From the NCBI GenBank assembly GCA_036676765.1, contig JAKFCH010000148.1:11141-75140 (forward strand): 64,000 bases of DNA, read 5' to 3'. The stretch is from Deltaproteobacteria bacterium (GTDB taxonomy: Bacteria > Myxococcota_A > UBA796 > SXON01). The notes beneath the pieces were generated by a model that worked only from the letters and a program-made list of their open reading frames with translations, did not search any database and was not told the DNA's origin. Shown here one piece after another: positions 11,750 through 32,775 of the stretch (its first letter is position 1; each line of letters begins with the position of its first letter). Position numbers and translations under genes: made by a program.

Positions 11750-13390
11750 TCAGGGCGCCATGCGCTGGCCCTGGCAGTCCGGTGGATCATCCTCGATCGT
11801 GTCGATCAGGCGTTGGATGTCCACGGGCTTCACGAGGTGGGTGTCGAACCCGGCGTTGCGGCTCCGCGCGCGGTCGTTCGGCTGACCGTAGCCGGTGAGC
11901 GCGATGAGGCGGAACGGCGTCGAGCGCTCCGCACGCAGCTGGGTCGCGAGCTCGTAGCCGTCCATCACCGGGAGGCCGATGTCGAGGATGCCGATGTCCG
12001 GCGTGAACGTGCGGGCGAGGACGAGCGCCTCGACGGCGTCGGTCGCCGTCGCGACCTCGTGGCCCCTCGCACGCAGGACCTCCGCGATCAGCGCGCACGC
12101 GTCCTCGTTGTCGTCCACGACGAGGATGCGCCTGGCGTCGACCCCCGTCGGCACGTCGATCTCGGGGCGCGACGCGCTGTCGAAGGCGTCGGCGGCGCTC
12201 CCGAGCGGCAAGCGGACGGTGAAGGTGCTCCCGGCTCCTTCGCCGGAGCTGGACGCGTCGACCGTTCCGCCGTGGAGGCCCACCAACGTGCGAACGAGCG
12301 TGAGGCCGAGCCCCAGACCGCCGCGAGAGCGATCGACCGACTGGTTGCCCTGCACGAAGAGATCGAACACCCTCGGCAGGAGCTCGGGCGCGAGCCCCGC
12401 GCCGGTGTCGCGCACCTCGATGACGGCTTCGTCCGCTTCCTCACGGAGCTGGAGGGTGATCCGACCGCGGACATCCGTGTACTTCGCGGCGTTGGTCAGG
12501 AGGTTCGTCACGACCTGCACGAGCCTGGCTTCGTCACCGATGAACGGCAGGGGCGACGTGGGCTGGTGGACGGTCAGCTCGTGCATCCGCTGCTCGAGCA
12601 GGGGGCTGGCGGTCTCGATGGCCTTGGCGAGCACGTCACCCAGGTAGATGCGGTCACGCTTCAGCTCGAGTTTCCCGCGGGTGATGCGGGAGACATCGAG
12701 CAGATCGTCCACGAGGCGGATCATGTGATGGACCTGGCGCTCGATGATCCGCTGTTCCTTCGTCAACGCGCCGCCACTCCGCAGCGCCAGGAGCTGAAGG
12801 GCCGTGAGGATCGGCGCGAGCGGATTCCTGAGCTCGTGGCCCAGCATCGCGAGGAACGCATCCTTGGCGTGGTTCGCCTGCTCGGCGGCGAGCAAAGCGG
12901 CTCGCTCCTCCTCGCCCCGCTTCCGCTCGGTGAGATCGCGCGTCACCTTCGAGAAGCCGATCAGGTGATTCGTGTCGTCACGAACCGCGCTGATGACGAC
13001 GTTGGCCCAGAGGCGGGTACCGTCCTTTCGGATACGCCACCCTTCGTCCTCGAACCGCCCCTCGCGCTCGGCGACCTCCAGCTCGTACGCACACTTGCCC
13101 GCCCGGACCTCCTCCTCTGGGTAGAAGATCGAGAAGTGCCGCCCGAGGATGTCGGTCGCCCGATACCCCTTGATCCGCTCGGCGCCGATGTTCCAAGTGG
13201 TGACGTGCCCCTCGGGGTCCATCATGAAGATGGCGTAATCGCGGACGCTCTCCACCAGAAGTCGGAATAGCTCGCGGTTCTCCGACGCTACGCGCACCGG
13301 ATCTCCGAAGGCAGAGGCGGAAAGTGGAGTACTGCACAGGTCCGCCTCGGAGTCCGACCACTTCGATTTCACGGGCACCTCCCTGTCCAC
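11750..13390 (-). CDS. PAS-domain hybrid sensor histidine kinase with C-terminal receiver
   Basis: PAS (DYAIFMMDPEGHVTTWNIGAERIKGY...RKDGTRLWANV), H-box FLAMLGHELRNPLAP, HATPase (NLLTNAAKYT, DTGAGL, GGLGLGLTLV), receiver (ILVVDDNED...ILDIGLPVMDG...HLVKP). Confidence 0.9.
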   Translation of the reverse strand: MDREVPVKSKWSDSEADLCSTPLSASAFGDPVRVASENRELFRLLVESVRDYAIFMMDPEGHVTTWNIGAERIKGYRATDILGRHFSIFYPEEEVRAGKCAYELEVAEREGRFEDEGWRIRKDGTRLWANVVISAVRDDTNHLIGFSKVTRDLTERKRGEEERAALLAAEQANHAKDAFLAMLGHELRNPLAPILTALQLLALRSGGALTKEQRIIERQVHHMIRLVDDLLDVSRITRGKLELKRDRIYLGDVLAKAIETASPLLEQRMHELTVHQPTSPLPFIGDEARLVQVVTNLLTNAAKYTDVRGRITLQLREEADEAVIEVRDTGAGLAPELLPRVFDLFVQGNQSVDRSRGGLGLGLTLVRTLVGLHGGTVDASSSGEGAGSTFTVRLPLGSAADAFDSASRPEIDVPTGVDARRILVVDDNEDACALIAEVLRARGHEVATATDAVEALVLARTFTPDIGILDIGLPVMDGYELATQLRAERSTPFRLIALTGYGQPNDRARSRNAGFDTHLVKPVDIQRLIDTIEDDPPDCQGQRMAP

Positions 13391-13458
13391 ATAACAGGCC
13401 TGCTACCCGTGTAGCCGACCGGCCGATTGGGCCAACGACCCTGGCCGGCCGGCCCGCT

Positions 13459-18162: not shown

Positions 18163-18960
18163 GTGCGCCCCCACGCCGGAGGCCACATGGCCGGATCGCT
18201 CGCAGCCGTTCTCCTCGCCTTCTCCGCCACCGGCGGCCTCGGCCTCTGGTCCGTCGACAGCAGCGGTGCGCTGTCCCTCGGCTCCTCCGAGGCCGCCGAC
18301 TCGCCCGCCCGTTCCATCGTCTTCGACGTTGGGGACGGCGTCGCCATCATGGGTGGCGCCGGTCCGACCTATTGCGGCAAGGTCGTCGGCTGCACCCCGG
18401 GCGACGCGACGATCGCGCTGCCCGCGGGCCTGTCCGGCGGCGGGCTGGTCGTCCTCGGCGGGCAGGACCTCGGCTTCACCGACGTGTCCGGACTCGGCAT
18501 CGAGATCCTCGACGCGGTGCGGGCGAGCGCCGGCGGCGCGGACTTCGATCTCGTCCCGGGCCTGGAGACCGGCATGGTCTGCGGTGTCGTGGACGAAGCG
18601 CCCCAGGACGACCTCGTCGGGGACCTCCCGAACGATGAGCTCACCGGCGGCCCCTACGCCGTCGACTCCCCGCGGGATCACGCGTCGGGTCTGCCCACCG
18701 GCCTGCGCGTCTCCGACGAGGGCGAGGGTGCGGGTGCGTTGCCCTTCGTCTACGGCGTGCATCTCCAGCCCATCGGCAGCAGCGCCGGCGCGGACAGCGC
18801 GGACACCTGGGCCGTGTGTGCCGCCTGGAGCGAAGGTCGGCTCGCCTCCTACGCGGTGGTTGCCCTCCGTAACGGCGACAGCCTCGCCGACCGCCCGAGC
18901 CGGGTCACCGGCGTGGTGACTCATGGGTTCATGGACGATTCGGACGAGTCGTTCCAGTAG
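18163..18960 (+). CDS. hypothetical secreted protein
   Basis: This is the only frame here with normal amino-acid composition. It has a signal-like N-terminus (MAGSLAAVLLAFSATGG; possible start at ATG 18187). It lies directly upstream of the kinase pair. Confidence 0.5.
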   Translation: MRPHAGGHMAGSLAAVLLAFSATGGLGLWSVDSSGALSLGSSEAADSPARSIVFDVGDGVAIMGGAGPTYCGKVVGCTPGDATIALPAGLSGGGLVVLGGQDLGFTDVSGLGIEILDAVRASAGGADFDLVPGLETGMVCGVVDEAPQDDLVGDLPNDELTGGPYAVDSPRDHASGLPTGLRVSDEGEGAGALPFVYGVHLQPIGSSAGADSADTWAVCAAWSEGRLASYAVVALRNGDSLADRPSRVTGVVTHGFMDDSDESFQ

Positions 18961-19009
18961 GCGAGCGCGCCAGCGCCATTCCCACCGTCGCCCTCGAGAA
19001 AGTCGCCGC

Positions 19010-21433
19010 GTGAACCGCTCCTCCGCCCCCCCGCCGAGCACTGGCCCCACGCGCGCCGACGCGGCCACGGTGAGCGACACGTTCGCGGAGATTCCCGGGG
19101 CGACCGCGCCCGACAGCCTCCCCGTGCTCACCCCCCGATACGTGGATCTCGGCGTGCTCGGCACCGGAGGGATGGCCATCGTCCACCGCGTGCGGGACCG
19201 GCTCCTCGACCGGCGCGTGGCGATGAAGGTGCTCGCGGCACGCCTCGCGGCGGATCCGACCATGCGCGCACGGTTCCTGCAGGAGGCGAGGCTCCTCGCC
19301 GCGCTTCGCCACCCGGGCATCGTGCCCGTCCACGACCTCGGGGAGCTGCCGGACGGGCGGCCGTACTTCACGATGGACGAGGTGCGCGGCCGGTCGCTCG
19401 GCGAGGTGCTGGCCGAGGGGACCGTGTCGTTGCCCTTCCGGATCGGCGTGCTGACCCGCGTGTGCGCCTGCGTGGCCTATGCGCACACGATGGGCGTCCT
19501 CCACCGCGACCTGAAGCCCGGCAACGTGATGCTCGGCGACGAGGGCGAGGTGCGCGTGGTGGACTGGGGGATCGCGCGGACGGGCGGAGCGGAGCCCGCG
19601 ATCGGGGGGGAACGCGCGTGGGGGTTCCCCCCGGATGCCCCGCAACACACCCGCGTCGGCGCGATCAACGGCACACCCGCATACATGGCGCCCGAGCAGG
19701 CCGCCGGCGACACGGCCGCCGTGGGGCCCCACACCGACGTCTACGCGCTCGGCGCGGTTCTCTACACGCTGCTCGCCGGGCGGCCACCGTTCCGGGGCGG
19801 GGATTCCCGGGAGGTGCTCGAGGGCTCACCACCCCCTGTCGGCGACGTGGCAGGTGCGCCCCTCCCCATCGAGCTCGTGACGCTGTGCGAGCAGGCAATG
19901 GCGCGCGCGCCCGCGGATCGGCAGACGGCCGCGGCGCTCGGCGAGGCCCTCGGCGCGTGGCTCGCGGGCGAGCAGCGCGTGGCGCATGCCTTGGCGGCGT
20001 TGGAGGTGGCCGCCGCGCACGTGGCGGAGGCGGAGGTCGCCCGCGCGGAGGCCGACCAGGCGCGGCTCGACTGGATGGCACGGGACGCCGTCCTCCCGCT
20101 CCACGCGGACGAGGTCGCGCTGGCCGCGCACTGGCAGGCCGACAACGACGCGAAGGTCCTCGACGTGCGCGCGACACTGCACGAGGAGGAGGTCATGCGC
20201 GCGCTCCGGGGGGCGCCGGCCGAGGCGCCGGACCTCCCCGACGCCCGCGAGCGGCTGGCCGATCGGCTCCTGGCCACGCTCCGCCGCGCCGAGGACCACC
20301 ACGACGCCGATGCATCCCGTGCGATCGCGGAGGAGCTCCGCGAGCAGGTGGCGCTCCTCCCGCCGACGTGGCCCGCGCGCGCCCGGATCGAGGCCGGGCT
20401 CGAGGGGGACGGGACGATCACGCTCGCGACGGATCCACCGGGCGCCGAGGTTCGGCTCGCGCGGTACGAGGCGCAGGACCGGCGGATGGTGGAGGTGCCC
20501 GCGGGGACGCTCGGCGTGACGCCCCTGCGGGAGGTGCCGCTCGGCATGGGGAGCTGTGTGCTGACCGTGGTCGCCCCCGGGTGCGCGGAGGTGCGGCTCC
20601 CCGTGGTCGTGCGACGCGGCGAGCGTTGGGCGCGCGTCGCCCCCGGCGCGACCGATCCGCGGACGTTGCGCCTTCCCCGGCTCGGCGAGCTCGGCCCCGA
20701 CGACTGCTACGTGCCGGCGGGCTGGTTCGTGCGGAGGCGGCCCGAGGGGCCCGCGTGGCCGGCCCTCCGGCAGTGGACCGAGTCGTTCGTGATCCGGCGC
20801 TTCCCGGTCACCCACCGCGAGTACCTGGTGTTCCTCGACGACCTCTGGGCCACCGGGCGGCGCGACGAGGCGCTGGAGCATGCCCCCGGCACGCCCACCG
20901 GCCCGAGTCGGGGCTGCGTCGTGGAGGGAGGGCGTTTCGTCCTCCAGCCCGACGAGCACGGCCACTGCTGGGAGGTGGACGGAGCGGCGTTCCTCCTCAC
21001 GCCCGTCCAGGGGGTCGCGTATGCGTCCTGGCTCGCGGCGCGTACCGGGACGCCCTGGCGGCTCCCCACCGAGGCCGAGTGGATCCACGCGGCGCGGGGC
21101 GCGGACGGCCGCCGCTACCCGATGGGCGACCACCTGGATCCCGCGTGGGCGCACGTGAAGGGCACCTACGCCGGCGCCGAGAGCCTAGGGCGGGTCGGCT
21201 CGTTCCGGTCCGACGCGTCTCCGTACGGCGTGCGGGACCTCGCCGGCGGGGTGCTGGACTTCGCGGTGGATCCCGCCGGCCCGACCTACACCTACCGGGG
21301 CGGGGCCTACTCGCTCCTGCCCTTCGCGGGTCGGCTGGACGGTCCACGCCGCGAGGTGCCGATCTCCCGCACGCGAGCCTGGCACTCGCGCAACTGGCAC
21401 CACGGCTTCCGCATCGCCCGGAGCGCGCCGTGA
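19010..21433 (+). CDS. Ser/Thr protein kinase fused to a PEGA-like and FGE-sulfatase (SUMF1/EgtB/PvdO) domain
   Basis: ORF 18923..21433; GTG 19010 is the likelier start. Kinase motifs: GTGGMAIVHRV, VAMKVL, HRDLKPGNVML, VVDWGIAR, GTPAYMAPEQ. The C-terminus has CYVPAGWF...RRFPVTHREYLVFL...WRLPTEAEWIHAARG...GFRIARS. Confidence 0.85.
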   Translation: MNRSSAPPPSTGPTRADAATVSDTFAEIPGATAPDSLPVLTPRYVDLGVLGTGGMAIVHRVRDRLLDRRVAMKVLAARLAADPTMRARFLQEARLLAALRHPGIVPVHDLGELPDGRPYFTMDEVRGRSLGEVLAEGTVSLPFRIGVLTRVCACVAYAHTMGVLHRDLKPGNVMLGDEGEVRVVDWGIARTGGAEPAIGGERAWGFPPDAPQHTRVGAINGTPAYMAPEQAAGDTAAVGPHTDVYALGAVLYTLLAGRPPFRGGDSREVLEGSPPPVGDVAGAPLPIELVTLCEQAMARAPADRQTAAALGEALGAWLAGEQRVAHALAALEVAAAHVAEAEVARAEADQARLDWMARDAVLPLHADEVALAAHWQADNDAKVLDVRATLHEEEVMRALRGAPAEAPDLPDARERLADRLLATLRRAEDHHDADASRAIAEELREQVALLPPTWPARARIEAGLEGDGTITLATDPPGAEVRLARYEAQDRRMVEVPAGTLGVTPLREVPLGMGSCVLTVVAPGCAEVRLPVVVRRGERWARVAPGATDPRTLRLPRLGELGPDDCYVPAGWFVRRRPEGPAWPALRQWTESFVIRRFPVTHREYLVFLDDLWATGRRDEALEHAPGTPTGPSRGCVVEGGRFVLQPDEHGHCWEVDGAAFLLTPVQGVAYASWLAARTGTPWRLPTEAEWIHAARGADGRRYPMGDHLDPAWAHVKGTYAGAESLGRVGSFRSDASPYGVRDLAGGVLDFAVDPAGPTYTYRGGAYSLLPFAGRLDGPRREVPISRTRAWHSRNWHHGFRIARSAP

Positions 21434-23514
21434 GGCCCGCGCCGGACGCCGGATGGCGCGCGCTGTTGCCGAGCCTCCCGCTCGTCGGCGCCCCCGGGGA
21501 CGCCGATCGGTGGGAAGCCGAGCGCCCGGTGCTGGGCGGACGCGTGGCGGTCGAGGTGGCGGGCGCGCACCTGGAGGCTTGGCTCGCGGAGACGCGGGCC
21601 CTGGCGGGGCTCCAGCACCCGGCGATCCCGCCGCTGCACGAGGTGGGCGTGCTCCCCGACGGGCGGGTCGCGCGGATCCGCGCCGTGGTGACCGGCGTTC
21701 CCGGAGCCGAGGCGGTCCTCGGGTGCGGAGAGCGGCCCCGCGCCGACACGCTGATCCGCGCCGCCGAAGCCCTCGCCCACGCCCACGCCCGCGGCGTGGC
21801 CCACGGCCGGTTCGGAGAGGACGCGCTCCGGCTCGGCGAGAGCGGACAGGTCTGGATCGTGGGGTGGGGCGCGCCGGGGGGCCGCGCCGGTGACGACGTC
21901 GCGGCCCTCCTCTCGCTGGTCGACGCGTGGCTCGGGCCCGCCGCGCTCGGCGAGGCCGACGTACGCGCCACGCTGGGGACGGCCGCGTCGATCGTGGCGC
22001 GCCTGCAGGCCTGGCTGGAGGGCGCGGACCGTCGCGGGCGCGCGCTGGCGTCGGTCGCGCGCGCGGAAGGCCTGCTCGTCGCCTCAGCCGCCGCCGTCCA
22101 CGAGCACGCGCCGGAAGAGCGTGCTGCCCGAGTCGCCGTCGCCGCGGCGCCGACCCACTTGCCGGAGGTCACCCGGCACGCGGCGTGGGCGCTCGAGGAC
22201 ATGGCCGAGCAACTCCGGCGCGCGGCCGTCGACCACGTCGAGGCGGCCCGCCGGGCGCTCCACGGCGCGCTCGAGCAGGACCCGGCGCTGCCCGAGGCCC
22301 ACGCGGCGATGGCACGCTCGTGGACCGAGTCCGCCGCCGTCGCGGAGCGGGAGGGCGCCCGCGCGGCCCAAGCGCGCGCCGAGCTCGCCCTCCACGACCA
22401 CCTCGGGAGGCTGCCGCGCACTCACCCCCTCCGCGCCCACGACGATCGATTCCTCCGCGGCACGGGCGCCGTCACCCTGGTCACCGATCCGCCCGGCGCG
22501 CTCGTCACGGTCGAGCGCTACGAGGAGGTCGACCACCGGCTCGTGCTCTGCCCCGCCGGATCGCTCGGCCGCACGCCGCTGCACGCGGTCGACCTCGCGC
22601 CGGGCAGCTACCGCCTCCGCCTCGAGGCGCCGGGCCGGGCCCCCGCGCTCTACCCCGTCCACATCGGGCGGCAGACGCACTGGGACGGCGTCCCGCCGGG
22701 CGACACGACACCCTTCCCCGTCCGCCTCCCGCGCCCTCACGAGCTCGACCGGGACGACTGCTACGTCCCGGCCGGCTGGTTCGCGGCCGGGTCGTCGAGC
22801 GTCCACGGCAGCGTCTGGCCCCGCCGCTTGTGGTGCGACGGCTTCGTGATCCGCCGCTTCCCGGTGACCGCCGCCGAGCTCCTCGCCTGGCTCGACGAGC
22901 TCGTCGGCGCCGCGGACGAGGAACGCGCGCTCGCGTTCGCCCCCCGGTTGCGGGACGGCGGCCTCTTCTATGCGCGCGGCGAGGACGGGCGCTTCCTCCC
23001 CGCGCTTCCGCCAACCGAGGCGGAGTGGCCCGCGGCCTATGTCTCCCGCGCGATCGCCGTCGCCTACGCGGACGCGCTCCGCGCCGAGGGCCGCCCGTGG
23101 CGCCTCCCCATGGACCTCGAGTGGGAGAAGGCCGCCCGCGGCGTGGACGGGCGCGCGTACCCGTGGGGTCGACGGCGGACGGCGCGCTGGGCCAACCTCA
23201 TGGTGCCCGGCGGGCCCGAGCACCCGGCGCCCGTCGACAGCTTCCCGCTGGACGAGAGCGCCTACGGCGTGCGCGGCGTCTCCGGCAACGCGTTCGACTG
23301 GGTCGCCGACGCCTACGAGCCGCTCGGTCCCGAGCTGCCGGACAACCGCGTCGAGGTCGCCTTGCCCACGCCCGTCCTCCCCTCCGCCGCCTTCGCCGTC
23401 TGCCGAGGCAACAGCTTCACGGGGATGGAGCCCCACCTCGCCACCCGCGCCCATTGCCTCGTCTCGATGACCCGCTACGACATCGGCTTCCGCGTCGCGC
23501 GGTCCCTGGGTTGA
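21430..23514 (+). CDS. pseudokinase paralog fused to a PEGA-like and FGE-sulfatase domain
   Basis: Real 694-aa part of ORF 19462..23514. The GTG start at 21430 overlaps the upstream stop as GTGA. The architecture matches the upstream gene, but catalytic motifs are lost (RVAVEVA for VAxK, VAHGRFGED for HRDLKxxN, IVGWGAP for DFG). The FGE domain is retained (CYVPAGWF, WRLPMDLEWEKAARG, GFRVARS). Confidence 0.8.
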   Translation: MRPAPDAGWRALLPSLPLVGAPGDADRWEAERPVLGGRVAVEVAGAHLEAWLAETRALAGLQHPAIPPLHEVGVLPDGRVARIRAVVTGVPGAEAVLGCGERPRADTLIRAAEALAHAHARGVAHGRFGEDALRLGESGQVWIVGWGAPGGRAGDDVAALLSLVDAWLGPAALGEADVRATLGTAASIVARLQAWLEGADRRGRALASVARAEGLLVASAAAVHEHAPEERAARVAVAAAPTHLPEVTRHAAWALEDMAEQLRRAAVDHVEAARRALHGALEQDPALPEAHAAMARSWTESAAVAEREGARAAQARAELALHDHLGRLPRTHPLRAHDDRFLRGTGAVTLVTDPPGALVTVERYEEVDHRLVLCPAGSLGRTPLHAVDLAPGSYRLRLEAPGRAPALYPVHIGRQTHWDGVPPGDTTPFPVRLPRPHELDRDDCYVPAGWFAAGSSSVHGSVWPRRLWCDGFVIRRFPVTAAELLAWLDELVGAADEERALAFAPRLRDGGLFYARGEDGRFLPALPPTEAEWPAAYVSRAIAVAYADALRAEGRPWRLPMDLEWEKAARGVDGRAYPWGRRRTARWANLMVPGGPEHPAPVDSFPLDESAYGVRGVSGNAFDWVADAYEPLGPELPDNRVEVALPTPVLPSAAFAVCRGNSFTGMEPHLATRAHCLVSMTRYDIGFRVARSLG

Positions 23515-23519
23515 CGCGT

Positions 23520-23538
23520 GGCGACCCTGGTGGTCGCC
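23520..23538. terminator. candidate bidirectional hairpin between convergent stop codons
   Basis: GGCGACC-ctggt-GGTCGCC, a 7-bp perfect stem that fills the 24-nt gap between the TGA at 23512-14 (+) and the stop at 23539-41 (-). No U-tract. Confidence 0.3.
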
Positions 23539-23579
23539 TCACCCGACGTCCGGCTTCCACGAAGCCGAGGCTGAAAGCG
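23528..23579. repeat. copy D (partial) of the recurrent about-70-nt element; overlaps the 3' end of the B12-binding gene
   Basis: Shares CCCGACGTCCGGCTTCCACGAAGCCGAGGCTGAAAGCG with the copies at 26237, 32141 and 32944. Confidence 0.6.
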
Positions 23580-24333
23580 AGAGGGTGTGGATGTCGGCGA
23601 CCAGCTCGGCGCCGGGGATGGCATCGACGAGGCCCAGCTTGACGGCGTAGCCGCCGATCAGGATCCTCGGGCGCAGCTCGGGAGGGAGTTCGCGGACGGC
23701 CGCCACGATCTCCTCCACGGAGGGGCGCTGCTCCGCGAGCGCCATCGACACGAGCACGAGACCGGGGCGCCGCTCCCGGATCGCGGCGACGACATCGCTC
23801 GGCGTAGGTGGGGGATCGAGGATGCGGACCTCGACACCCTGACCGAGGAGCCAGGACGCGAGCGTGCGCAAGGCCAGCGTATGGAAGTTGCCGGGCGCGT
23901 TGAGGAGCAGAGCGGAGACGGACGGCGCGTGGTGCTCCTCGCTCCGCACCCGGGCCTCGAGCAGCGTGAAGGCCTGCGCGCAGAAGGAGGTGAAGCGGTG
24001 CTCCTCCGCTACCGTGATCACCCCGCGCTTCCAGTCCTCGCCGATGTGGTAGAGCAGCGGCGCGAGCAGCCCCAACAACACGTCCACCGGGCGCATGCCC
24101 GCCCGCAGGGCGTCCTCCACGATGCGGGCGGCAGCGGGGAGATCCTCCCGACGGCCCGCCCGCAGGAGCTGCTCCTGGATCTGCTGCAGCTCACGGGCGT
24201 ACACGAGCTTCGATGGCGAGCCCTCGACCTCGGCCACCGCGCAGGTCTCGCAGATGCCGTGCGTGATCGCGTAGTCGTCGAAGGGGGCACGCTCGCCCTG
24301 GAAGCGCTGACAGTAGGCGCACCACTTCAGCAT
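23539..24333 (-). CDS. B12-binding-domain protein (Cys4 zinc ribbon + B12-binding_2 helical cap + Rossmann B12-binding domain)
   Basis: Real 264-aa part of ORF 23539..24378, from MLKWCAYCQRF...HGICETC (CxxC...CxxC). Cap motif IGEDWKRGVITVAEEHRFTSF. Rossmann domain with a His-containing variant NFHTLA of the DxHxxG motif. The start overlaps the upstream stop (ATGCTGA). Confidence 0.75.
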   Translation of the reverse strand: MLKWCAYCQRFQGERAPFDDYAITHGICETCAVAEVEGSPSKLVYARELQQIQEQLLRAGRREDLPAAARIVEDALRAGMRPVDVLLGLLAPLLYHIGEDWKRGVITVAEEHRFTSFCAQAFTLLEARVRSEEHHAPSVSALLLNAPGNFHTLALRTLASWLLGQGVEVRILDPPPTPSDVVAAIRERRPGLVLVSMALAEQRPSVEEIVAAVRELPPELRPRILIGGYAVKLGLVDAIPGAELVADIHTLSLSASASWKPDVG

Positions 24334-25592
24334 CCGGCGTCGAGCGACGCGCGCAGACGCCGCACCTCCGAGATCCATTCCGGCGAGAAGCGGTCGGGGT
24401 CCTCGAACCAGTCCCGGGTCGCACCGAGCGCCCCTTCGATCCCAGCGCGTTCGTCGACCCAGGCGGAGGTGATGAGCCGCGCGGCGCCGTCCACCGTGAA
24501 GCCCCTACAGGCCTTCAGGCGCGGCTCGAACGCGTCGATCCGGGCCGACAGGCACCCCTCCCCTCCGAGGCGTTCACGCTCGTCCCGCAGGCCCGCGAGG
24601 AACGGGGAGAGCCGGGCGCCACGCGACGCACCGTCGTCCAACTCTCCTCGAAGCTGACGGACAATCTCGTACAGGTGCTCTTCGAGCACAATCGTGGGCA
24701 GCCCCCGGGGCACGAGCACGGTGCGCAGCCACGAGAGGCTCTTCGTGGCCACCTCCTCCGACGCTTGCGTCAGCGCGACCAGCCAGCAACTGTCACTGGT
24801 GGTGAACCGGCGCCCACGCTCTCCGAAGCGGTGGGCGAGATAGGGCGTGCGCGCCCAAACCTGGGCGCCTGCGCGCAAGGCCAGCCCAATCTCGCGCGGG
24901 TCCTGCGGCATCGCGTGGCGGCCCGCCTCCGGGTTGAGCCCCGCTACGTGGTGCTTCAGATCCCTCTCCGCGTACGGATGCAACGCCGCGCACATGTCCG
25001 AGAACCAATCGAAGCAGGCGACGGCCCCGCGCACGACGGCGCTCACCTCGTCGGTGCCGGCCGGCAGCGCGTCCAACGCCGCCGTGAAGCGCTCCCAACG
25101 CGCGCCGATCCGCGCGCCGCTCCCGCCGAAGGACAGGAGCGTCCCGTGCGGGACGCCCAGGCACCGCGCATAGTCGCGCGCGAGCACGGCCCCTCCGAGC
25201 CTGGAGCCCTCGAGCACGTAGAGGACGCCGACGAGGGCGAAGGCGTCGTCGGCCGGCTCCCGGAGCGCGTTCGCGAATGCGAGGGCGCGCTCGACCGCAG
25301 GGACCACGCTCGGTTGCCGCGCCGCGTCGAGTCGCTCCAAATCCGCGAGGAGGAGCGGTAGCCGCGGCGACACCTCCGCTGCGAGGCTCCGGACCTCGGG
25401 GATCGACGCCTCCGTGAGGGCACGCTCGTGCCCCGCGTGCACAATCGCGAGCCCGCGCAGGAAGCTCAGAGCGGCGAGCGGGGGCAGCGTGCCGGCGCGG
25501 AGCGCCGCGACGTACGGCGATCCTTCCAGGCGCGCGTGGTGGGCGCCGGTCTCCGCTCGAAGCGTCGCGTGAAGCGCGGGGAACGGCGTCAT
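24327..25592 (-). CDS. haem-oxygenase-like domain fused to an about 220-aa uncharacterised C-terminal domain
   Basis: N-terminal LHATLRAETGAHHARLE and VGVLYVLEGSRLGGAVL resemble the biliverdin-producing haem oxygenase family. I do not recognise residues from about 200 to 421. Confidence 0.65.
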   Translation of the reverse strand: MTPFPALHATLRAETGAHHARLEGSPYVAALRAGTLPPLAALSFLRGLAIVHAGHERALTEASIPEVRSLAAEVSPRLPLLLADLERLDAARQPSVVPAVERALAFANALREPADDAFALVGVLYVLEGSRLGGAVLARDYARCLGVPHGTLLSFGGSGARIGARWERFTAALDALPAGTDEVSAVVRGAVACFDWFSDMCAALHPYAERDLKHHVAGLNPEAGRHAMPQDPREIGLALRAGAQVWARTPYLAHRFGERGRRFTTSDSCWLVALTQASEEVATKSLSWLRTVLVPRGLPTIVLEEHLYEIVRQLRGELDDGASRGARLSPFLAGLRDERERLGGEGCLSARIDAFEPRLKACRGFTVDGAARLITSAWVDERAGIEGALGATRDWFEDPDRFSPEWISEVRRLRASLDAGC

Positions 25593-25602
25593 CCTCCCGT
25601 CC

Positions 25603-25998
25603 TCAAATCATCACGTCGCGCAGGCTCGCGATCTGCTCGCGCAGATCGTCGACCCCGAAGGGCTTCTGGAGGAAGAGCACCCGGCCGAGGGAGAAGACGC
25701 TCGGATCCACCTGACTTCGCGAGTACCCCGTACAGAGGATCACCCTCACGTCCGATCCCCCGGCACGCAGGCGCCGCACCACCTGCACGCCGTCCATCCC
25801 CGGCATCCGCAGGTCGAGGAGCACGAAGGCGAAGGCTCGCGCCGCGCGCTCCACCATACCGAGCGCGGCGGTCCCGTCCGTCGCCTCCTCGACCTTGTAT
25901 CCCAGGCCTTCCAGCAGTTTCCGGGCCGAGAACACGCTCCACTCGTCGTCATCGACGACGAGAACCACTTCCTGCGCGTGCTCGTTCTCGACCATCAT
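25603..25998 (-). CDS. single-domain response regulator (receiver only)
   Basis: Real 131-aa part of ORF 25603..26091. VVLVVDDDEWS, phospho-acceptor context FVLLDLRMPGMDG, and LQKPF. It ends 10 nt before the next gene. Confidence 0.85.
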   Translation of the reverse strand: MMVENEHAQEVVLVVDDDEWSVFSARKLLEGLGYKVEEATDGTAALGMVERAARAFAFVLLDLRMPGMDGVQVVRRLRAGGSDVRVILCTGYSRSQVDPSVFSLGRVLFLQKPFGVDDLREQIASLRDVMI

Positions 25999-26236: not shown

Positions 26237-26307
26237 GGGGACCATGGGACCAACCGATTGACACGCCCGACATTCGCACGCCACGAAGCCGAGGCTGAAC
26301 GCGTCAG
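26237..26307. repeat. copy A of the recurrent about-70-nt element
   Basis: GGGGACCATGGGACCAACCGATTGACACGCCCGACATTCGCACGCCACGAAGCCGAGGCTGAACGCGTCAG. It aligns end to end with 32944-33014 and, over its first 67 nt, with 32141-32207. Confidence 0.6.
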
Positions 26308-26729
26308 TCTACTCGCGCGCCGCACAGGTCCACGGCGAGCGCTTCCTTGCCGTTGGGGAGCACGTTGAACATGCGAAAGCTGAAGTGATCCGGGTCGTAC
26401 CAGTCGAGGACGATGCGCCAGCCCCAGTCCGGCGATCCGTCGCCCGCCGGGTAGGTGCCGAACAACAGCACCGTGCTGCCTTGGACGTGGCCGTGCAGCA
26501 GCAGCCCGCTGGCCGCGTGGAACGTGTCGGTGAAGTCGCCGCGGCACGAGGGGCCGGGTCCGTTGAGCACGAGCTCGCCCTCCTTCTGCGCGCCATCGTG
26601 GGCCCATCGCACGGACACTCGGTCGGCGGCGACGACGAGCACTCCGTCGGAGACGTGGGCGGGTGTCCCCGGCATGAACCAGAGGCGGTTGGAACCGGCG
26701 AAGCGACCGTGGTGCGAGGAAGGGATCAT
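26304..26729 (-). CDS. hypothetical protein (probable beta-rich small domain)
   Basis: 141-aa ORF with normal composition and GC3 bias. No family assigned by eye. A 36-nt piece near its 3' end (26323-26358) is duplicated at 32728-32763. Confidence 0.55.
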   Translation of the reverse strand: MIPSSHHGRFAGSNRLWFMPGTPAHVSDGVLVVAADRVSVRWAHDGAQKEGELVLNGPGPSCRGDFTDTFHAASGLLLHGHVQGSTVLLFGTYPAGDGSPDWGWRIVLDWYDPDHFSFRMFNVLPNGKEALAVDLCGARVD

Positions 26730-26839
26730 GCGTCGATTCTACATGAAACCTCGATGCACGCAAGGCGCCTTCGCGCGATTCCGACTGCTTGCAGCCCGGC
26801 GAAAGAACGGGCATACAGGCGGTCCACAGGAAGACTACC

Positions 26840-29671
26840 ATGCGCCTCACGCTGCTGCTCACGCTCCTGCTCGTCGCCTGTACGGGCGAAGGCGAAAAGC
26901 CGACCGACTCCGGAGACGACGCGGGCACCGATGCCGATGCCGACGGCTTCACGGCGGTCGATGGCGATTGCGACGACAATGACTCCACCCGGTCGCCCGG
27001 GGCGGTCGAGGAGTGCGACGGAATAGACAACAACTGCGACAATGCAGTCGACGAGGGTGTCACCAACACGTACTTCGCGGACGCGGACGGCGACGGCTAC
27101 GGCGACCCCGCGGTGACCGAGCCCGCGTGCACGGCCTCCACCGGGTACGTCGCGACCGGTGACGACTGCGACGACACCGACGCCTCGAGCTTCCCCGGCG
27201 CCTTCGAGACCTGCGACGACGCCGACAACGACTGCGACGGCACGATCGACGAGGACGTGATCCCGACGTGGTACGCCGACGCCGACGCCGACGGCTACGG
27301 TGACGCCGCCGTCGCGCAGGACATCTGCCTCGCCCCCGGCGGCTACGTCGCCGATGCCACCGACTGCGACGACGCCGACGCCGACGTCAACCCGGGCGCC
27401 GCCGAGGCCGACTGCACCGATCCGAACGACTACAATTGCGACGGTTCCGTCGGATATGCCGATGTGGACGGCGACGGTCGCGCGGCCTGCGACGACTGCG
27501 ACGACGCTGTCGCCACGACCTACGAAGGCGCGTCGGAGGCCTGCAACGGCGTCGATGACGACTGCGACTCGGTGGTGGACGAAGACGTGACCACGACCTT
27601 CTACGCAGACGCCGACGCCGACGGCGCGGGCAACCTCGCCTTGCCCGTCGAGGCGTGCGACCTTCCTTCCGGCTACGCCGCGAGCGCCGACGACTGCGAC
27701 GACGCGCTCGCCGATGTGAACCCGAGCGCCCCCGAGATCTGCAACGGCGGCCTCGACGACGACTGCGACGGCTTCGCGGACGACGACGACGCAGGCGTCG
27801 ACCTCTCCACCGGCGAGACTTGGTACAGAGACGGCGACGGCGACGCCCACGGAGACCCCGCCGCGGCGCTCGACGCCTGCCTCGCTCCCGCCGATTACGT
27901 GGCGGATTCTTCGGACTGTGACGACGGGGCCGCCGCCGTGAACCCGGCCGCGACCGAAACCTGCAACAGCGGGGTGGACGACGACTGCGACGGTTCGGCG
28001 GATGACGCCGACACCACGGTGGCCGACACCACGACGTGGTTCTATGACCTCGACAGCGACGGTTTCGGCGACCCCGCCAGGACGGTCGACACCTGCGAGG
28101 CACCTGTCAGCTACGTCGGGACCGCGACCGACTGCGACGACGCGACCTTCGACGTCAATCCCGCCGCGACCGAGACCTGCAACAGCGGCGTGGACGACGA
28201 CTGTGACGGCCTCGCCGACGATGACGACGCCAGCACCGACCTGACCACGGGGGAGACCTGGTACTACGACAACGACGGTGACTCCTCGGGCGATGCCGCG
28301 GTGACCATGGACGCCTGCGTGGCCCCGACCTCCTACGTCGGGTCCGGTGACGACTGCAATGACGATGACGCGGCGATTGGTCCGACCGGCGTCGAAGTCT
28401 GCAACAGCGGCGTGGACGACGATTGTGACGGCCTCTCCGACGACGACGACCCCACCGTGGACCTCGCGACCGCCACCAGCTGGTTCGCCGACGGCGACCG
28501 CGACGGCGATGGCGATGCCGCGACCACCACCCGCACCTGCGTGTCGCCCGCTGGCCACGTCACGACGTCGTCGGACTGCAACGACGCCGACGCCGGTGTG
28601 TACACGGGCGCCACCGAGATCTGCAACGAGGGCGTCGACGACGACTGCGACGGCTTCGCCGACGACGACGACACATCCGTGGACACTTCGACCGGGTCGA
28701 CCTGGTACGCCGACGCCGACACGGACGGCTACGGCGACGCCGGCACCTCAGCGCAGACCTGCGAGGCCGGCTCGGGCTACCTCGCGGACGCCACCGACTG
28801 CGACGATCGCGACGCCGAGGCCCACCCGGGTGCCTCCGAAACCTGGTACGACGGGCAGGATCAGGACTGCGACGGCGCGTCCGACTACGACCAGGATGGC
28901 GACGGTGACGACGCGATTGGCTACGGCGGGATCGACGAGGACGACACGAACCCGGACTGCGCGGAGGACTGCTCCGACGGCTCGACCCAGGCGCGCGCCG
29001 GGGCTTCCTGCGAGGACCTGCTCGTGACCTTCCCGGACAGCGGGGACGGCACCTACTGGATCGATCCCGACTTCGACGGGGACACGTCCGACGCGTTCGA
29101 GGTCGAGTGCGACATGGAGAACGGCGGCTGGTCCCGCTGCTTCGCCTTGACCAACACCACCGCCGAGGACCTGATCGGAAACACCTGGTTCGACGACTGC
29201 GTCGATTGGACGGGCGATTGGACCGAAGACGAGGTCCGCGTCGTCCTGACCGACACCTCCGGCACGGTCCTCTACGATCACAACGGGGTGCGGCCGACGA
29301 CCTGGAGCCGTACGCAGCTCACGTCGACGGTCACCCCCTTCAGTCAATACCACGAGGACAACCACCTTTCGCTCGTCACGCTGGACAACGGCGACAAGCT
29401 GATGATCACCGGGAACAACAGCTACAACAGCGGCTGCGGCGGGTCGTTCGGCAACGGCTACGGCATCGTCGTGTACCCCAGCTCCCCGGACTACTACTCC
29501 AACCCGAAGATGCTGGTCATGTCGCACCAGCAGACCCTGACCTACACGAGCGTGCGGCTGTTCGCGGGCTGGACGGCGTCCAACGAGATCAGCGGGACGG
29601 GGGGCTCGTCGTTCAACACTTGCAGCTCTACACCGAGCCAGCTCGGAACGTTCGAGTTCTACCTGCGGTAG
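26840..29671 (+). CDS. secreted lipoprotein with about 10 MopE-type Cys/Asp repeats and a fibrinogen-C / collagen C-propeptide-like C-terminal domain
   Basis: ORF 26789..29671. The likely start is MRLTLLLTLLLVAC (lipobox) at 26840. It has 10 repeat units of the same pattern as the 8430..11627 gene, plus a 237-aa C-terminal domain. Confidence 0.85.
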   Translation: MRLTLLLTLLLVACTGEGEKPTDSGDDAGTDADADGFTAVDGDCDDNDSTRSPGAVEECDGIDNNCDNAVDEGVTNTYFADADGDGYGDPAVTEPACTASTGYVATGDDCDDTDASSFPGAFETCDDADNDCDGTIDEDVIPTWYADADADGYGDAAVAQDICLAPGGYVADATDCDDADADVNPGAAEADCTDPNDYNCDGSVGYADVDGDGRAACDDCDDAVATTYEGASEACNGVDDDCDSVVDEDVTTTFYADADADGAGNLALPVEACDLPSGYAASADDCDDALADVNPSAPEICNGGLDDDCDGFADDDDAGVDLSTGETWYRDGDGDAHGDPAAALDACLAPADYVADSSDCDDGAAAVNPAATETCNSGVDDDCDGSADDADTTVADTTTWFYDLDSDGFGDPARTVDTCEAPVSYVGTATDCDDATFDVNPAATETCNSGVDDDCDGLADDDDASTDLTTGETWYYDNDGDSSGDAAVTMDACVAPTSYVGSGDDCNDDDAAIGPTGVEVCNSGVDDDCDGLSDDDDPTVDLATATSWFADGDRDGDGDAATTTRTCVSPAGHVTTSSDCNDADAGVYTGATEICNEGVDDDCDGFADDDDTSVDTSTGSTWYADADTDGYGDAGTSAQTCEAGSGYLADATDCDDRDAEAHPGASETWYDGQDQDCDGASDYDQDGDGDDAIGYGGIDEDDTNPDCAEDCSDGSTQARAGASCEDLLVTFPDSGDGTYWIDPDFDGDTSDAFEVECDMENGGWSRCFALTNTTAEDLIGNTWFDDCVDWTGDWTEDEVRVVLTDTSGTVLYDHNGVRPTTWSRTQLTSTVTPFSQYHEDNHLSLVTLDNGDKLMITGNNSYNSGCGGSFGNGYGIVVYPSSPDYYSNPKMLVMSHQQTLTYTSVRLFAGWTASNEISGTGGSSFNTCSSTPSQLGTFEFYLR

Positions 29672-31410: not shown

Positions 31411-31842
31411 TCATGCCTCGATCGCGCGCAGGTAGCCTCGCGCCGCATAGCCGAGAAGTGCGCGATCCCGAGTGACGAGAATGGCACTCTCGTGACGCGC
31501 GGTCGCTGCGATGATTCGATCCGAGGGATCACCGTGAAGGTCGCCCGGGAGACGAGTGCTGGCGACGGCGATCTCGGGGGAGAGCGGAAGGATGCGGAGG
31601 CCCGCGCGCCTGGTGGACTCGGCCACCCACTCGAGACAGTCCATCTGGAGCTGCATGCGCCCCTTGGATTCCAGCATGGCCACCTCCCAGACCGATATGG
31701 CGGAGATGGCGAGCGCCGACTCGGCGGAAGCACGGCGAATGCCGTCGAGAGCGCCCTCGAGGAGGCGCTCCGGACCACCGTTCACCAGCCAGATCCAGAC
31801 GTGCGTGTCGAGCACATGGAGGTCTACTGATCCGCTTCCCAC
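31411..31842 (-). CDS. vapC: PIN-domain toxin (VapC family)
   Basis: VLDTHVWIW...ISVWEVAML...DPSDRIIAATARHESAILVTRD carries the conserved PIN acidic residues. The GTG start overlaps the antitoxin 3' end by 19 nt. Confidence 0.8.
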   Translation of the reverse strand: MGSGSVDLHVLDTHVWIWLVNGGPERLLEGALDGIRRASAESALAISAISVWEVAMLESKGRMQLQMDCLEWVAESTRRAGLRILPLSPEIAVASTRLPGDLHGDPSDRIIAATARHESAILVTRDRALLGYAARGYLRAIEA

Positions 31843-32140: not shown

Positions 32141-32207
32141 GGGGACAATGGGACGTGGTGGTCGCCTCACCCGACGTCCGGCTTCCACGAAGCCGAGGCT
32201 GAAGGCG
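32141..32207. repeat. copy C of the recurrent about-70-nt element
   Basis: GGGGACAATGGGACGTGGTGGTCGCCTCACCCGACGTCCGGCTTCCACGAAGCCGAGGCTGAAGGCG. It shares both termini with copies A and B and its core with copy D. Confidence 0.6.
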
Positions 32208-32775
32208 CGAGGGTGTGGATGTCGGCGACCAACTCGGCGCCGGGGATGGCATCGACGAGGCCCAGCTTGACAGCGTAGCCGCAGATCAGGATCCTCGGGC
32301 GCAGCTCGGGAGAGAGCTCGCGGACGGCCGCCACGATCTCCTCCACGGAGGGACGCTGCTCGGCGAGCGCCATCGACACGAGCACGAGACCGGGGCGCCC
32401 CTCCCGAATCGCGGCGACGACAACGTTCGGCGTAGGTGGGGGATCGAGGATGCGGACCTCGACACCCTGACCGAGGAGCCATGACGCGAGTGTGCGCAAG
32501 GCCAGCGTATGGAAGTTGCCGGGCGCGTTGAGGAGCAGAGCGGAGGCTGACGGCGCGGGGCGCTCCTCGCTTCGCACCCGGGCCTCGAGCAGCGTGAACG
32601 CCTGCGCGCAGAAGGAAGTGAAGCGGTGCTCCTCTGCGACGGTGATCACCCCGCGCTTCCAGTCCTCGCCGATGTGGTAGAGCAGCGGCGCGAGCAGCCC
32701 CAACAACACGTCCACCGGGCGCATGCCCACAGGTCCACGGCGAGCGCTTCCTTGCCGTTGGGGTGCCGTGCGCAT
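32167..32775 (-). pseudogene. N-terminally truncated, chimeric paralog of the B12-binding-domain gene
   Basis: 32156-32728 matches 23528-24100 with a constant offset of 8628, no indels, and about 95% identity by eye. The zinc ribbon and first helix are missing. The 5' end is fused to 36 nt from near the 3' end of the 26304..26729 gene. An internal Met (start at 32724, MRPVDVLLGLL...) could still give a B12-domain-only protein. Confidence 0.55.

Follow-up and report, generated by a model that had tools for sequence, protein, structure and literature searches.

A heme oxygenase-photoglobin-like fusion gene overlapping a CarH-type B12-binding protein gene: a putative split photocobilin

Three tightly packed genes lie on the minus strand of a 64,000-nucleotide stretch of a Deltaproteobacteria bacterium contig (JAKFCH010000148.1), hereafter called the window. 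A sequence-only reading had described this trio as separated by a 10-nt gap and joined by a 7-nt ATGCTGA overlap, and the gene coordinates bear out that layout.

25603-25998, minus strand: receiver gene, 131 aa (open reading frame; the public gene call likewise gives 131 aa)
25593-25602, minus strand: 10-nt spacer GGACGGGAGG from the receiver stop to the heme oxygenase start (read from the sequence)
24327-25592, minus strand: heme oxygenase/photoglobin-like fusion gene, 421 aa (open reading frame)
24981-25574, minus strand: heme oxygenase domain, aa 7-204 (PF01126); proximal His19, distal-helix motif Y125-VLEGSxxGG
24330-24956, minus strand: C-terminal all-helical domain of ten helices, aa 213-421 (AF2; without a Pfam model)
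24642-24884, minus strand: photoglobin-like core with putative biliverdin pocket, aa 237-317 (hhalign)
24327-24333, minus strand: 7-nt overlap ATGCTGA, formed by the Cys-stop of the fusion gene (TGC TGA) and the start of the B12 gene (ATG CTG A) (sequence)
23539-24333, minus strand: gene for a zinc ribbon and CarH-type B12-binding protein, 264 aa (open reading frame)
24229-24333, minus strand: zinc ribbon CxxC-x19-CxxC, aa 1-35 (family conservation)
23956-24177, minus strand: B12-binding_2 four-helix cap, G98-E-D-W101 and E111-H112 (W-x9-EH) (PF02607)
23641-23913, minus strand: Rossmann B12-binding domain, G148-N-F-H151 (PF02310)

The spacer GGACGGGAGG looks like a Shine-Dalgarno element and resembles a ribosome-binding site, while the 7-nt overlap implies that the fusion and B12 genes are translationally coupled. 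As had been claimed, no DNA-binding domain was detected in the receiver, the fusion or the B12 protein.

The N-terminal domain of the fusion protein matched the Pfam Heme_oxygenase family (PF01126) over aa 7-201 with 44.8 bits against a cutoff of 23. Both signatures previously picked out by eye were present, AHHARLE with H19 and YVLEGSRLGG at residues 125-134, and H19 aligned with the His of the Leptospira heme oxygenase 5KZL. A doubt raised at that time over the proximal His and the fold was answered by the conservation of H19, Y125, G129 and G133 (each at least 90% across 104 sequences) and by the heme oxygenase fold of the AF2 model of the 421-aa protein (pLDDT 93.6, pTM 0.88). Foldseek comparison of the full model matched HmuO and HO-1 (E of 2e-5; TM 0.75-0.82 per target). 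This full-model result was dominated by the heme oxygenase domain. Judged by score, residues and modeled fold, the N-terminal domain is a canonical heme oxygenase and a putative producer of biliverdin.

The C-terminal half of the fusion had been left unassigned, with HMM and structure prediction proposed for it. These analyses gave a confident all-helical fold (pLDDT 95.1 and pTM 0.90 for the AF2 model of the domain alone) and a photoglobin profile match. Compared by hhalign with 12 photoglobin or biliverdin-binding domains, the C-terminal domain matched over 81 columns with 93.2% probability (E of 2.9e-7), and reversed and 20 shuffled control profiles reached at most 0.5%; neither the heme oxygenase domain nor the C-terminal domain's second half matched photoglobins. 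An identical register was recovered from separate subsets, Azospirillum-type N-terminal photoglobins (88%) and the Streptomyces/8J2W/8J2Y photocobilin domains (52%). Among these comparators, L048 matched 8J2W over its full length (E of 5e-81), and the Azospirillum domain matched PF00502 above the cutoff.

The conserved motifs of the core are T264-x-x-D267, C269, W288 and R296-G-L-P299. D267 and W288 were invariant in 104 sequences and aligned with the biliverdin contacts Asp270 and Trp296 of SasPcob; C269, two residues after D267, was also invariant. The conserved distal Cys (CxQD or CxRD) is absent, and its canonical position is occupied by T264, as it is by Thr in SasPcob (TLDD). The homology to photoglobins spans 81 of about 210 residues, and the remainder forms a helical extension of about 100 aa. 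These data suggest that the C-terminal half is a photoglobin-like, putative biliverdin-binding domain, whose similarity to the corresponding domain of photocobilins was seen by profile-profile comparison only.

No Pfam family was found in 35 C-terminal domains at E values up to 10, a null result that is uninformative because Pfam likewise fails to detect the biliverdin-binding domain in a genuine photocobilin homologue. An HMM of the domain produced only a chance match among PDB sequences (E of 3.5), and a protein search that started from a putative P0224 photoglobin produced no matches. Foldseek with the domain alone yielded nothing with E below 0.7 and neither 8J2W nor a phycobiliprotein among the best 50 matches; hemoglobin and myoglobin were matched weakly (probability 0.3-0.44, TM 0.42-0.50 per target). 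No other fold both recurred and had a usable TM score. It is unlikely, in our estimate, that the domain descends from a photoglobin but has lost bilin binding, a situation resembling AbDPcob, and serves the B12 protein as a scaffold for docking or regulation. Such a scaffold would fit the failure of Foldseek to recover bilin-binding globins, the alignment of only half of the domain with photoglobins and the existence of low-occupancy variants such as AbDPcob, whose globin domain is a poor binder of biliverdin (PMC10979010). However, AbDPcob lost the key Asp, whereas the fusion family keeps both Asp and Trp invariant, and fusion to a predicted biliverdin-producing enzyme would be hard to explain without a role for bilin.

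The 264-aa partner scored above the Pfam cutoffs for both PF02607 (51.5 bits, aa 53-126) and PF02310 (47.8 bits, aa 141-231). The paired cysteines, B12-binding_2 cap and NFHTLA loop noted from the letters alone were all found, as C5xxC8...C28xxC31, GEDW101...E111-H112 and G148-N-F-H151. Its best PDB relatives were CarH (8e-10), CtMerR (8JBS, 3e-9) and the photocobilins 8J2W/X/Y, with AerR (7TE2) at an E of 7e-4; the top relatives were all light-responsive cobalamin domains. Residues W101, E111, H112 and H151 aligned with W131, E141, H142 and H177 of CarH, and in 90 sequences conservation of W, EH and the axial His was at least 95%. Of the signatures of light-responsive domains taken from PMC11796333 (GxxW, EH, GxxH, E/DxH and GxxxP), two are altered. 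At E/DxH the protein has N149-F-H151, in which the lower axial His is kept and the canonical loop Asp/Glu and Gly are changed, and at GxxxP the segment D173-PPPTP aligns with G-PDTP of CarH.

Like the CarH and CtMerR repressors (5C8A, 8JBS), the protein combines a four-helix cap and a Rossmann domain with the W, EH and axial His. Unlike them, it has a 35-aa zinc ribbon in the position of the MerR DNA-binding domain and Lys in place of CarH H132; it contains no HTH and scored 45 bits with the NCBIfam CarH model NF052513, against a cutoff of 400. The zinc ribbon has no Pfam model, and its C5, C8, C28 and C31 and a THG motif were conserved across 90 family members. As a candidate, and at this point a guess, it may be an output or partner-binding module. 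Collectively, the alignments support a B12 domain that carries the AdoCbl-photoreceptor signature and is probably not of the heme-binding SCHIC type, with AdoCbl as the predicted cofactor.

Two other roles for this protein were weighed against a photoreceptor. In the first, which we regard as quite unlikely, the B12-like domain would bind heme, as in SCHIC/PpaA, or hydroxocobalamin, as in AerR, and the fusion would report heme, O2 or iron, with light irrelevant. The change of the DxHxxG loop to NFHTLA and the presence of AerR 7TE2 among the PDB matches (E of 7e-4) favor such a sensor, as does the dependence of heme oxygenase activity on heme, O2 and a reductant. Against it, the whole family keeps the axial His and the W-x9-EH cap, which is specific to AdoCbl, CarH and CtMerR outscore AerR by six orders of magnitude, and the partner domain retains the bilin-contact residues. 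In the second, the protein would be a corrinoid methyl-carrier and the pair metabolic, in line with its public annotation as "methanogenic corrinoid protein MtbC1", a label that JGI gives to many family members, and with weak NCBIfam matches to pyl_corrinoid and MtgC (E of 4e-4 to 0.02, far below the cutoffs). An MtbC1-type carrier was rejected as extremely improbable: photoreceptor relatives score much better, the W-x9-EH signature is present, the gene is coupled to the heme oxygenase/photoglobin-like fusion, and no methyltransferase genes occur in any examined locus.

More than 120 homologues of the fusion (about 420 aa, 37-53% identity) and about 100 of the B12 protein (250-280 aa) were found. 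The sequences come from metagenomes, and every genome locus of the fusion is a metagenome-assembled genome. A profile of the C-terminal domain identified 745 clusters at 50% identity among 1.84 billion representatives; the 150 matches listed in this search were all close family (E below 1e-46), with no photoglobins among them. Of 38 loci, 25 distinct ones, spread over at least six phyla, have the B12 gene directly downstream of the fusion; in 5 more it adjoins the fusion in a different orientation or is embedded (30 of 38 in total), and the remaining 8 have the fusion or its C-terminal domain without a nearby B12 gene. Represented among the pair loci are Acidobacteriota, Alpha- and Gammaproteobacteria, Myxococcota, Gemmatimonadota, Nitrospira and Bdellovibrionales. 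Since the pair recurs with the same 7-nt overlap ([A/G]TGCTGA) in at least 20 independent loci from different phyla, the arrangement is far beyond chance. The locus L027 was considered as a natural heme oxygenase-globin-B12 fusion and rejected; its heme oxygenase reading frame is broken, so the apparent fusion points to an assembly frameshift.

The receiver matched Response_reg (PF00072; E of 6e-24, 84.9 bits) without a second domain, and its phospho-acceptor residue set is complete (D16-D18, phospho-acceptor D62, T90 and K112). A survey of the trio, with the receiver cast as its output, found the pair conserved but not the receiver, which lies directly upstream of the pair in this locus and in one relative (L044, 90% identical) but in no other. 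The idea of a conserved trio was rejected on these grounds: the conserved unit is the pair of fusion and B12 genes, and the receiver is an accessory, lineage-specific gene outside this core. Of the tetrapyrrole or light-sensing module originally proposed, the heme oxygenase and B12 parts are supported, and sharpened by the photoglobin-like domain and the CarH-type B12 signature; output through the receiver is not supported as a conserved feature. Two-component or c-di-GMP proteins, found near 12 of 39 loci, were the only other recurrent neighbors. An adjacent cognate histidine kinase was sought and none was found, the nearest being 10 kb away.

Heme oxygenase genes classically sit with bacteriophytochromes, as in bphO-bphP operons, where the heme oxygenase gene lies beside the bacteriophytochrome that it supplies. 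By this precedent the fusion could simply supply or chaperone biliverdin for a bacteriophytochrome whose gene lies elsewhere, with the B12 protein a separate regulator that is merely co-transcribed; a relative with the heme oxygenase only (L038) does adjoin a PAS_2-GAF-PHY-GGDEF-EAL phytochrome. We consider a supplier role very unlikely. No phytochrome was found beside any heme oxygenase-photoglobin fusion or in the window kinases that were tested, the 7-nt coupling to the B12 gene is conserved across phyla, and photoglobin and B12 domains are fused elsewhere. As in bphO-bphP operons, the heme oxygenase is encoded beside a putative bilin-using photoreceptor; unlike in those operons, the acceptor would be a globin-type domain fused to the heme oxygenase and a cobalamin protein, with no PAS-GAF-PHY phytochrome.

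The combination, which the sequence-only reading did not recognize, has precedents. In the photocobilins SasPcob (8J2W/8J2X) and AbDPcob (8J2Y), photoglobin and B12 domains occupy one chain, and the globin binds its biliverdin noncovalently (Zhang et al. 2024, PMC10979010). In the portions of Schneider et al. [quoted passage not shown] These portions make no mention of a zinc ribbon, and the conserved distal Cys of the photoglobins they describe (CxQD) is replaced here by T-x-S-D with a Cys two residues later. Among the BBAG-2 globins of Myxococcota, two members bind biliverdin (Rockwell et al. 2023, PMC10151467). BBAG-2 globins are separate small proteins, encoded in a three-gene cluster with a pre-PcyA (pre-2 PcyA-type) reductase, and carry a Cys in their RGMC motif. 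In contrast, the globin-like domain described here is fused to a heme oxygenase, has R296-G-L-P299 without a Cys (RG[I/L]P at this position in the family, RGMP in two Polyangiales relatives) and has no adjacent reductase; no Fe_bilin_red protein was found among the annotated neighbors of L001, L002 and L044 or the window genes beside the operon. Photoglobin-B12 coupling, heme oxygenase-photoglobin fusions and the association of globin, heme oxygenase and B12 proteins are already reported bioinformatically (2021, 2023), and the pair is therefore a variant of a known theme and not a new class.

Like photocobilins, the pair joins a CarH-type, predicted AdoCbl-binding domain (W-x9-EH, axial His) with a putative phycobiliprotein-like globin in which the biliverdin-contact Asp and Trp are conserved. 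It differs from them in that the chromophore domains lie on two polypeptides linked only by the 7-nt gene overlap, the globin-like domain shares its chain with a heme oxygenase and bears the additional helical stretch of about 100 aa, a zinc ribbon stands at the N terminus of the B12 protein, and the loop is NFH and not E/DxH. On balance, we favor, with modest confidence, a split photocobilin that carries a biliverdin synthase of its own, a translationally coupled two-protein light sensor.

The observations above concern the architecture of the genes, the homology of their domains, conserved residues and synteny; from homology we infer the following chemical, binding and signaling steps for a split photocobilin. 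The heme oxygenase domain would convert heme to biliverdin, which the fused photoglobin-like domain would hold noncovalently, with D267 binding pyrrole rings A-C and W288 contacting ring D, like Asp270 and Trp296 of SasPcob. The co-translated partner would bind AdoCbl base-off/His-on through H151, beneath the W101...E111-H112 cap, in a CarH-like manner. The photoglobin-like domain would dock on the B12 protein and bring the chromophores edge to edge, as within one photocobilin chain. Green light acting directly on the cobalamin, or red light acting via biliverdin, would then cleave the Co-C bond and alter the B12 protein's oligomeric state or its contacts. The signal would exit by protein-protein contacts, for which the conserved N-terminal zinc ribbon is the candidate module. 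In this lineage, coupling would probably be to the co-transcribed CheY-like receiver, and in other lineages to neighboring phosphorelay and c-di-GMP proteins.

A more far-reaching proposal, which we hold to be doubtful, is a self-sufficient sensor of three tetrapyrroles, in which heme would be cleaved in cis, biliverdin handed over within the chain and the holder docked in trans on the AdoCbl protein. Light, from green to red, would be reported only when heme, O2 and reductant are available, with the zinc ribbon conveying output to CheY-like receivers or c-di-GMP relay proteins. Such signaling logic and such an output mechanism are not described for CarH or photocobilins.

If the split photocobilin model holds, the pair would be a natural and widely distributed form of the photocobilin light sensor built from two proteins, and its separable chromophore-bearing domains would be a clean system for studying optical coupling between biliverdin and AdoCbl. 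A sensor that makes its own biliverdin could, if real, yield green-through-red optogenetic tools without added bilin, and a function could be given to hundreds of genes labeled "heme oxygenase" or "methanogenic corrinoid protein MtbC1". Both the zinc ribbon and the helical extension of 100 aa also emerge from the analysis as conserved elements.

An internally deleted second copy of the locus was also observed in the window, in which a 39-nt stretch from the end of the upstream gene (141 aa) abuts the B12 gene's 3' two-thirds.

32156-32766, minus strand: deleted second locus copy (blastn), overlapped by the open reading frame 32167-32775

By blastn, this copy was 95.6% identical to 23528-24100 over 573 bp and 97% identical to 26323-26361 over 39 bp. 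[quoted passage not shown]

In the sequence-only reading of this DNA, a receiver, a haem-oxygenase-like fusion protein and a zinc-ribbon B12-binding protein were proposed to form a tightly packed minus-strand operon, possibly a tetrapyrrole or light-sensing module. The three open reading frames and their junctions were borne out by ORF coordinates and sequence, and all of the motifs that had been cited were found at the positions reported for them in the three proteins.

25603-25998, minus strand: receiver, ORF of 131 aa (NCBI gene call likewise 131 aa)
24327-25592, minus strand: haem-oxygenase (HO) fusion, ORF of 421 aa
23539-24333, minus strand: B12 protein, ORF of 264 aa
24229-24333, minus strand: zinc ribbon of the B12 protein (aa 1-35), motif WCxYC...THGICxxC

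The sequence between the receiver stop codon and the ATG of the HO fusion gene reads GGACGGGAGG, and ATGCTGA is common to the end of the HO fusion gene (TGC TGA) and the start of the B12 gene (ATG CTG A). Response_reg was the sole Pfam match of the receiver, which retained the full set of phospho-acceptor residues. The HO fusion matched Pfam Heme_oxygenase at aa 7-201 (44.8 bits against a cut-off of 23), with no match to aa 205-421 in the Pfam scan, and the B12 protein matched B12-binding_2 (aa 53-126) and B12-binding (aa 141-231).

By sequence and modelled fold, the N-terminal domain of the HO fusion is a canonical haem oxygenase and is predicted to be active. The AlphaFold2 model of the fusion (104 homologues) had a pLDDT of 93.6 and a pTM of 0.88, and a Foldseek search with its N-terminal half recovered HmuO, HO-1 and other haem oxygenases (E 2e-5; TM 0.75-0.82 per target). 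His19 aligned with the His of a solved haem oxygenase, and both His19 and the distal-helix motif Y125-VLEGSxxGG were at least 90% conserved.

The C-terminal half, which the sequence-only reading had left unassigned while proposing HMM searches and structure prediction, yielded a confidently modelled ten-helix domain and, by profile-profile comparison, a photoglobin match. Modelled alone, this C-domain (aa 213-421) was compact (pLDDT 95.1, pTM 0.90), and it carried the very strongly conserved motifs NxEAGxH, RFGERGRRFTsSDSCWL, WLRxVLasRG[I/L]P, LExHL, SAWxDE and RFSxxW. No Pfam model matched the C-domain, its HMM had no match among PDB sequences, and Foldseek returned nothing significant, with haemoglobin/myoglobin as the sole recurring fold among the weak matches.

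In photocobilins, a CarH-like B12 domain is joined with a phycobiliprotein-like biliverdin-binding globin (PMC10979010). A pairing of photoglobins with B12 domains was predicted in 2021, and the photoglobin carriers listed in that study include proteins annotated as biliverdin-producing haem oxygenase (PMC8717448). Twelve photoglobin domains from annotated plasmid records served as comparators. Those from Streptomyces were homologues of the photocobilin SasPcob, and the Streptomyces locus L048 gave a full-length match to the SasPcob structure 8J2W (E 5e-81); in those from Azospirillum, Skermanella and Ilyobacter the photoglobin was N-terminal to B12 domains, and the Azospirillum domain scored above the cut-off for PF00502 Phycobilisome. 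Aligned by hhalign with the 12 photoglobin domains, a C-domain profile of 35 sequences (A4) gave a probability of 93.2% and an E value of 2.9e-7 over 81 columns, spanning aa 237-317 of the HO fusion. Controls in which the target alignment was reversed, or its columns were shuffled (20 versions), gave probabilities of at most 0.5% and scores of at most 15.6, compared with 49.2, and neither the HO domain nor the second half of the C-domain matched the photoglobin profile in hhalign. When run separately, the two comparator subsets gave the same register (88%, E 2.8e-6 and 52%, E 1.4e-4). The last ~100 aa of the C-domain lie outside the aligned span.

Within this span, T264-T-S-D267 aligned with the C/T-x-x-D bilin motif, W288 with the conserved Trp of photoglobins, and R296-G-L-P with their RG[V]P/S. 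With an offset of +6 from PDB chain position to paper numbering, derived from Trp61 and Glu71-His72, D267 occupies the position of SasPcob Asp270, which contacts biliverdin pyrrole rings A-C, and W288 that of Trp296, which contacts biliverdin ring D and the corrin (PMC10979010). D267 and W288 were invariant among 104 family members; Cys269, two residues past D267, was also invariant in the C-domain. At the canonical Cys position the C-domain has Thr, as does SasPcob, which suggests that the putative binding of biliverdin is non-covalent.

Judged by sequence, the best solved relatives of the B12 protein are all light-responsive cobalamin domains: CarH (E 8e-10), CtMerR (8JBS, E 3e-9), the photocobilins SasPcob and AbDPcob (8J2W/X/Y) and AerR. 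W101, E111-H112 and H151 aligned with CarH W131, E141-H142 and H177 and were at least 95% conserved among 90 family members. Of the four signatures of light response, GxxW, EH, GxxH and GxxxP (PMC11796333), the first three are present, with D173-PPPTP in place of GxxxP; the E/DxH motif reads N-F-H. Where CarH has a MerR domain, the B12 protein has instead a 35-aa CxxC-x19-CxxC zinc ribbon, which was conserved across the family and matched no Pfam model. This ribbon may resemble the CxxCKKIRD...SHGICPxC motif, which is present at the termini of many PAS, GGDEF and receiver proteins. Gene context gave no support to the public 'MtbC1' annotation of the B12 protein.

More than 120 homologues of the HO fusion, of ~420 aa, were found, and the C-domain profile recovered 745 representative clusters at 50% identity, which among the matches listed were mostly ~420 aa, with some stand-alone proteins of ~220 aa. 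P0228 (632 aa), the sole such case among the matches listed, consists of an HO followed by two tandem C-domains with the motifs RGMPQW and RGMSQW, an arrangement that would permit two putative bilin sites per HO. A scan of species-representative genomes gave 40 loci, and all loci with the HO fusion in that scan were MAGs. The fusion occurred in Acidobacteriota, Alpha- and Gammaproteobacteria, Myxococcota, Gemmatimonadota, Nitrospira and Bdellovibrionales.

Of the gene trio in the sequence-only reading, the pair of HO fusion and B12 gene recurred in this survey; the receiver did not: outside the window, it was directly upstream only in L044, a 90%-identical relative. Among 38 informative distinct loci, the B12 gene was directly downstream in 25, adjacent in another orientation in 4 and represented by a B12 domain within a larger PAS protein in 1, and it was not found in the flanks of 8. 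The overlap [A/G]TGCTGA was common to at least 20 loci, across phyla (e.g. L011 7263-7269). Because it determines the final residue of the HO fusion and the first two of the B12 protein, the former has a conserved C-terminal Cys and the latter an 'ML' (Met-Leu) start. At L026 (1556-3158), the B12 domain is part of a large protein and is encoded ~800 bp downstream. L034, L036 and L039 each encode the C-domain on its own (~220 aa), and neither an HO nor a B12 gene occurs within 6 kb.

Going beyond homology, conservation and synteny, we lean slightly towards interpreting the pair as a split photocobilin that contains its own biliverdin synthase. The HO domain would produce biliverdin, the fused photoglobin-like domain would hold it, and the co-translated AdoCbl (B12) protein would act as the photochemical switch. 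Docking of the HO-fusion photoglobin with the B12 protein would place the two chromophores close to each other, and green or red light could then cleave the Co-C bond and change quaternary structure, as has been shown for SasPcob (PMC10979010). The zinc ribbon stands out as the candidate for output, and the co-transcribed CheY-like receiver a likely partner in the window's lineage. The 2021 study predicts a coupled sensor of photoglobin and B12, frequently divided between neighbouring genes and frequently accompanied by two-component genes, and it lists HO-photoglobin fusions (PMC8717448); the single-chain fused version has been characterised experimentally (PMC10979010). Since the principle was already predicted and the single-chain form characterised, the pair is not categorically new. 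No description of this specific, widespread HO-fusion/B12 pair was found in the literature searched, nor of the deep conservation of its translational coupling, of the B12 partner with a zinc ribbon or of the extended C-domain.

Clustering of all flanking ORFs revealed only one further recurrent class, at 12 of 39 loci, comprising PAS hybrid kinases with Hpt, RR-EAL, RR-HD, RR-PilZ and GGDEF-EAL proteins.

L005 1869-5988, L006 8256-13009, L011 8042-9220 and L029 4609-5391: recurrent neighbours (PAS hybrid kinase with Hpt; receiver-EAL, -HD and -PilZ)

These recurrent receiver-EAL, -HD and -PilZ neighbours hint at c-di-GMP signalling as a common pathway downstream of the gene pair. At L001 and L017, RR-GerE and a kinase occupy the place of the window's receiver; the nearest histidine kinase in the window (11753-13402) is 10 kb off. 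L038 (5992-9604) has the classical bphO-bphP arrangement, in which an HO-only relative (207 aa) without the C-domain adjoins a PAS_2-GAF-PHY-GGDEF-EAL bacteriophytochrome, in contrast to the photoglobin-fused HO.

Further features surround the operon in the window.

26304-26729, minus strand: gene of 141 aa shortly upstream of the receiver; its match to DUF1579 is weak and below threshold
32156-32766, minus strand: second copy of the locus, carrying an internal deletion (ORF 32167-32775; NCBI calls a 185-aa protein)
18923-23514, plus strand: two consecutive large proteins, converging on the operon
26789-29671, plus strand: protein of 960 aa with ten Cys/Asp repeats of the MopE type ('putative metal-binding')

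The 141-aa gene keeps its position in L044 and not in other lineages, and it may be part of the transcription unit in the window's lineage. In the second copy, 39 bp that are 97% identical to 26323-26361 (the 3' end of the 141-aa gene) abut the final two-thirds of the B12 gene, with 95.6% identity to 23528-24100 over 573 bp. The deletion, of 2222 bp, covers the receiver and HO fusion as well as the zinc ribbon and half of the B12-binding_2 cap. A PIN toxin gene (31411-31842) comes next after the second copy, and in L044 a PIN gene follows the intact B12 gene. The first of the two converging proteins is a Ser/Thr kinase that carries an FGE-sulfatase domain at its C-terminus, and the second combines PEGA and FGE-sulfatase domains with a degenerate kinase-like N-terminal part. 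Together with the MopE-repeat protein and the base composition of the window, Ser/Thr kinases with FGE-sulfatase domains suggest a Myxococcota-like genome. The 960-aa protein also has a fibrillar-collagen C-terminal-like domain, and similar repeat DNA recurs at ~9000-11500 in the window, which is ~70% G+C.
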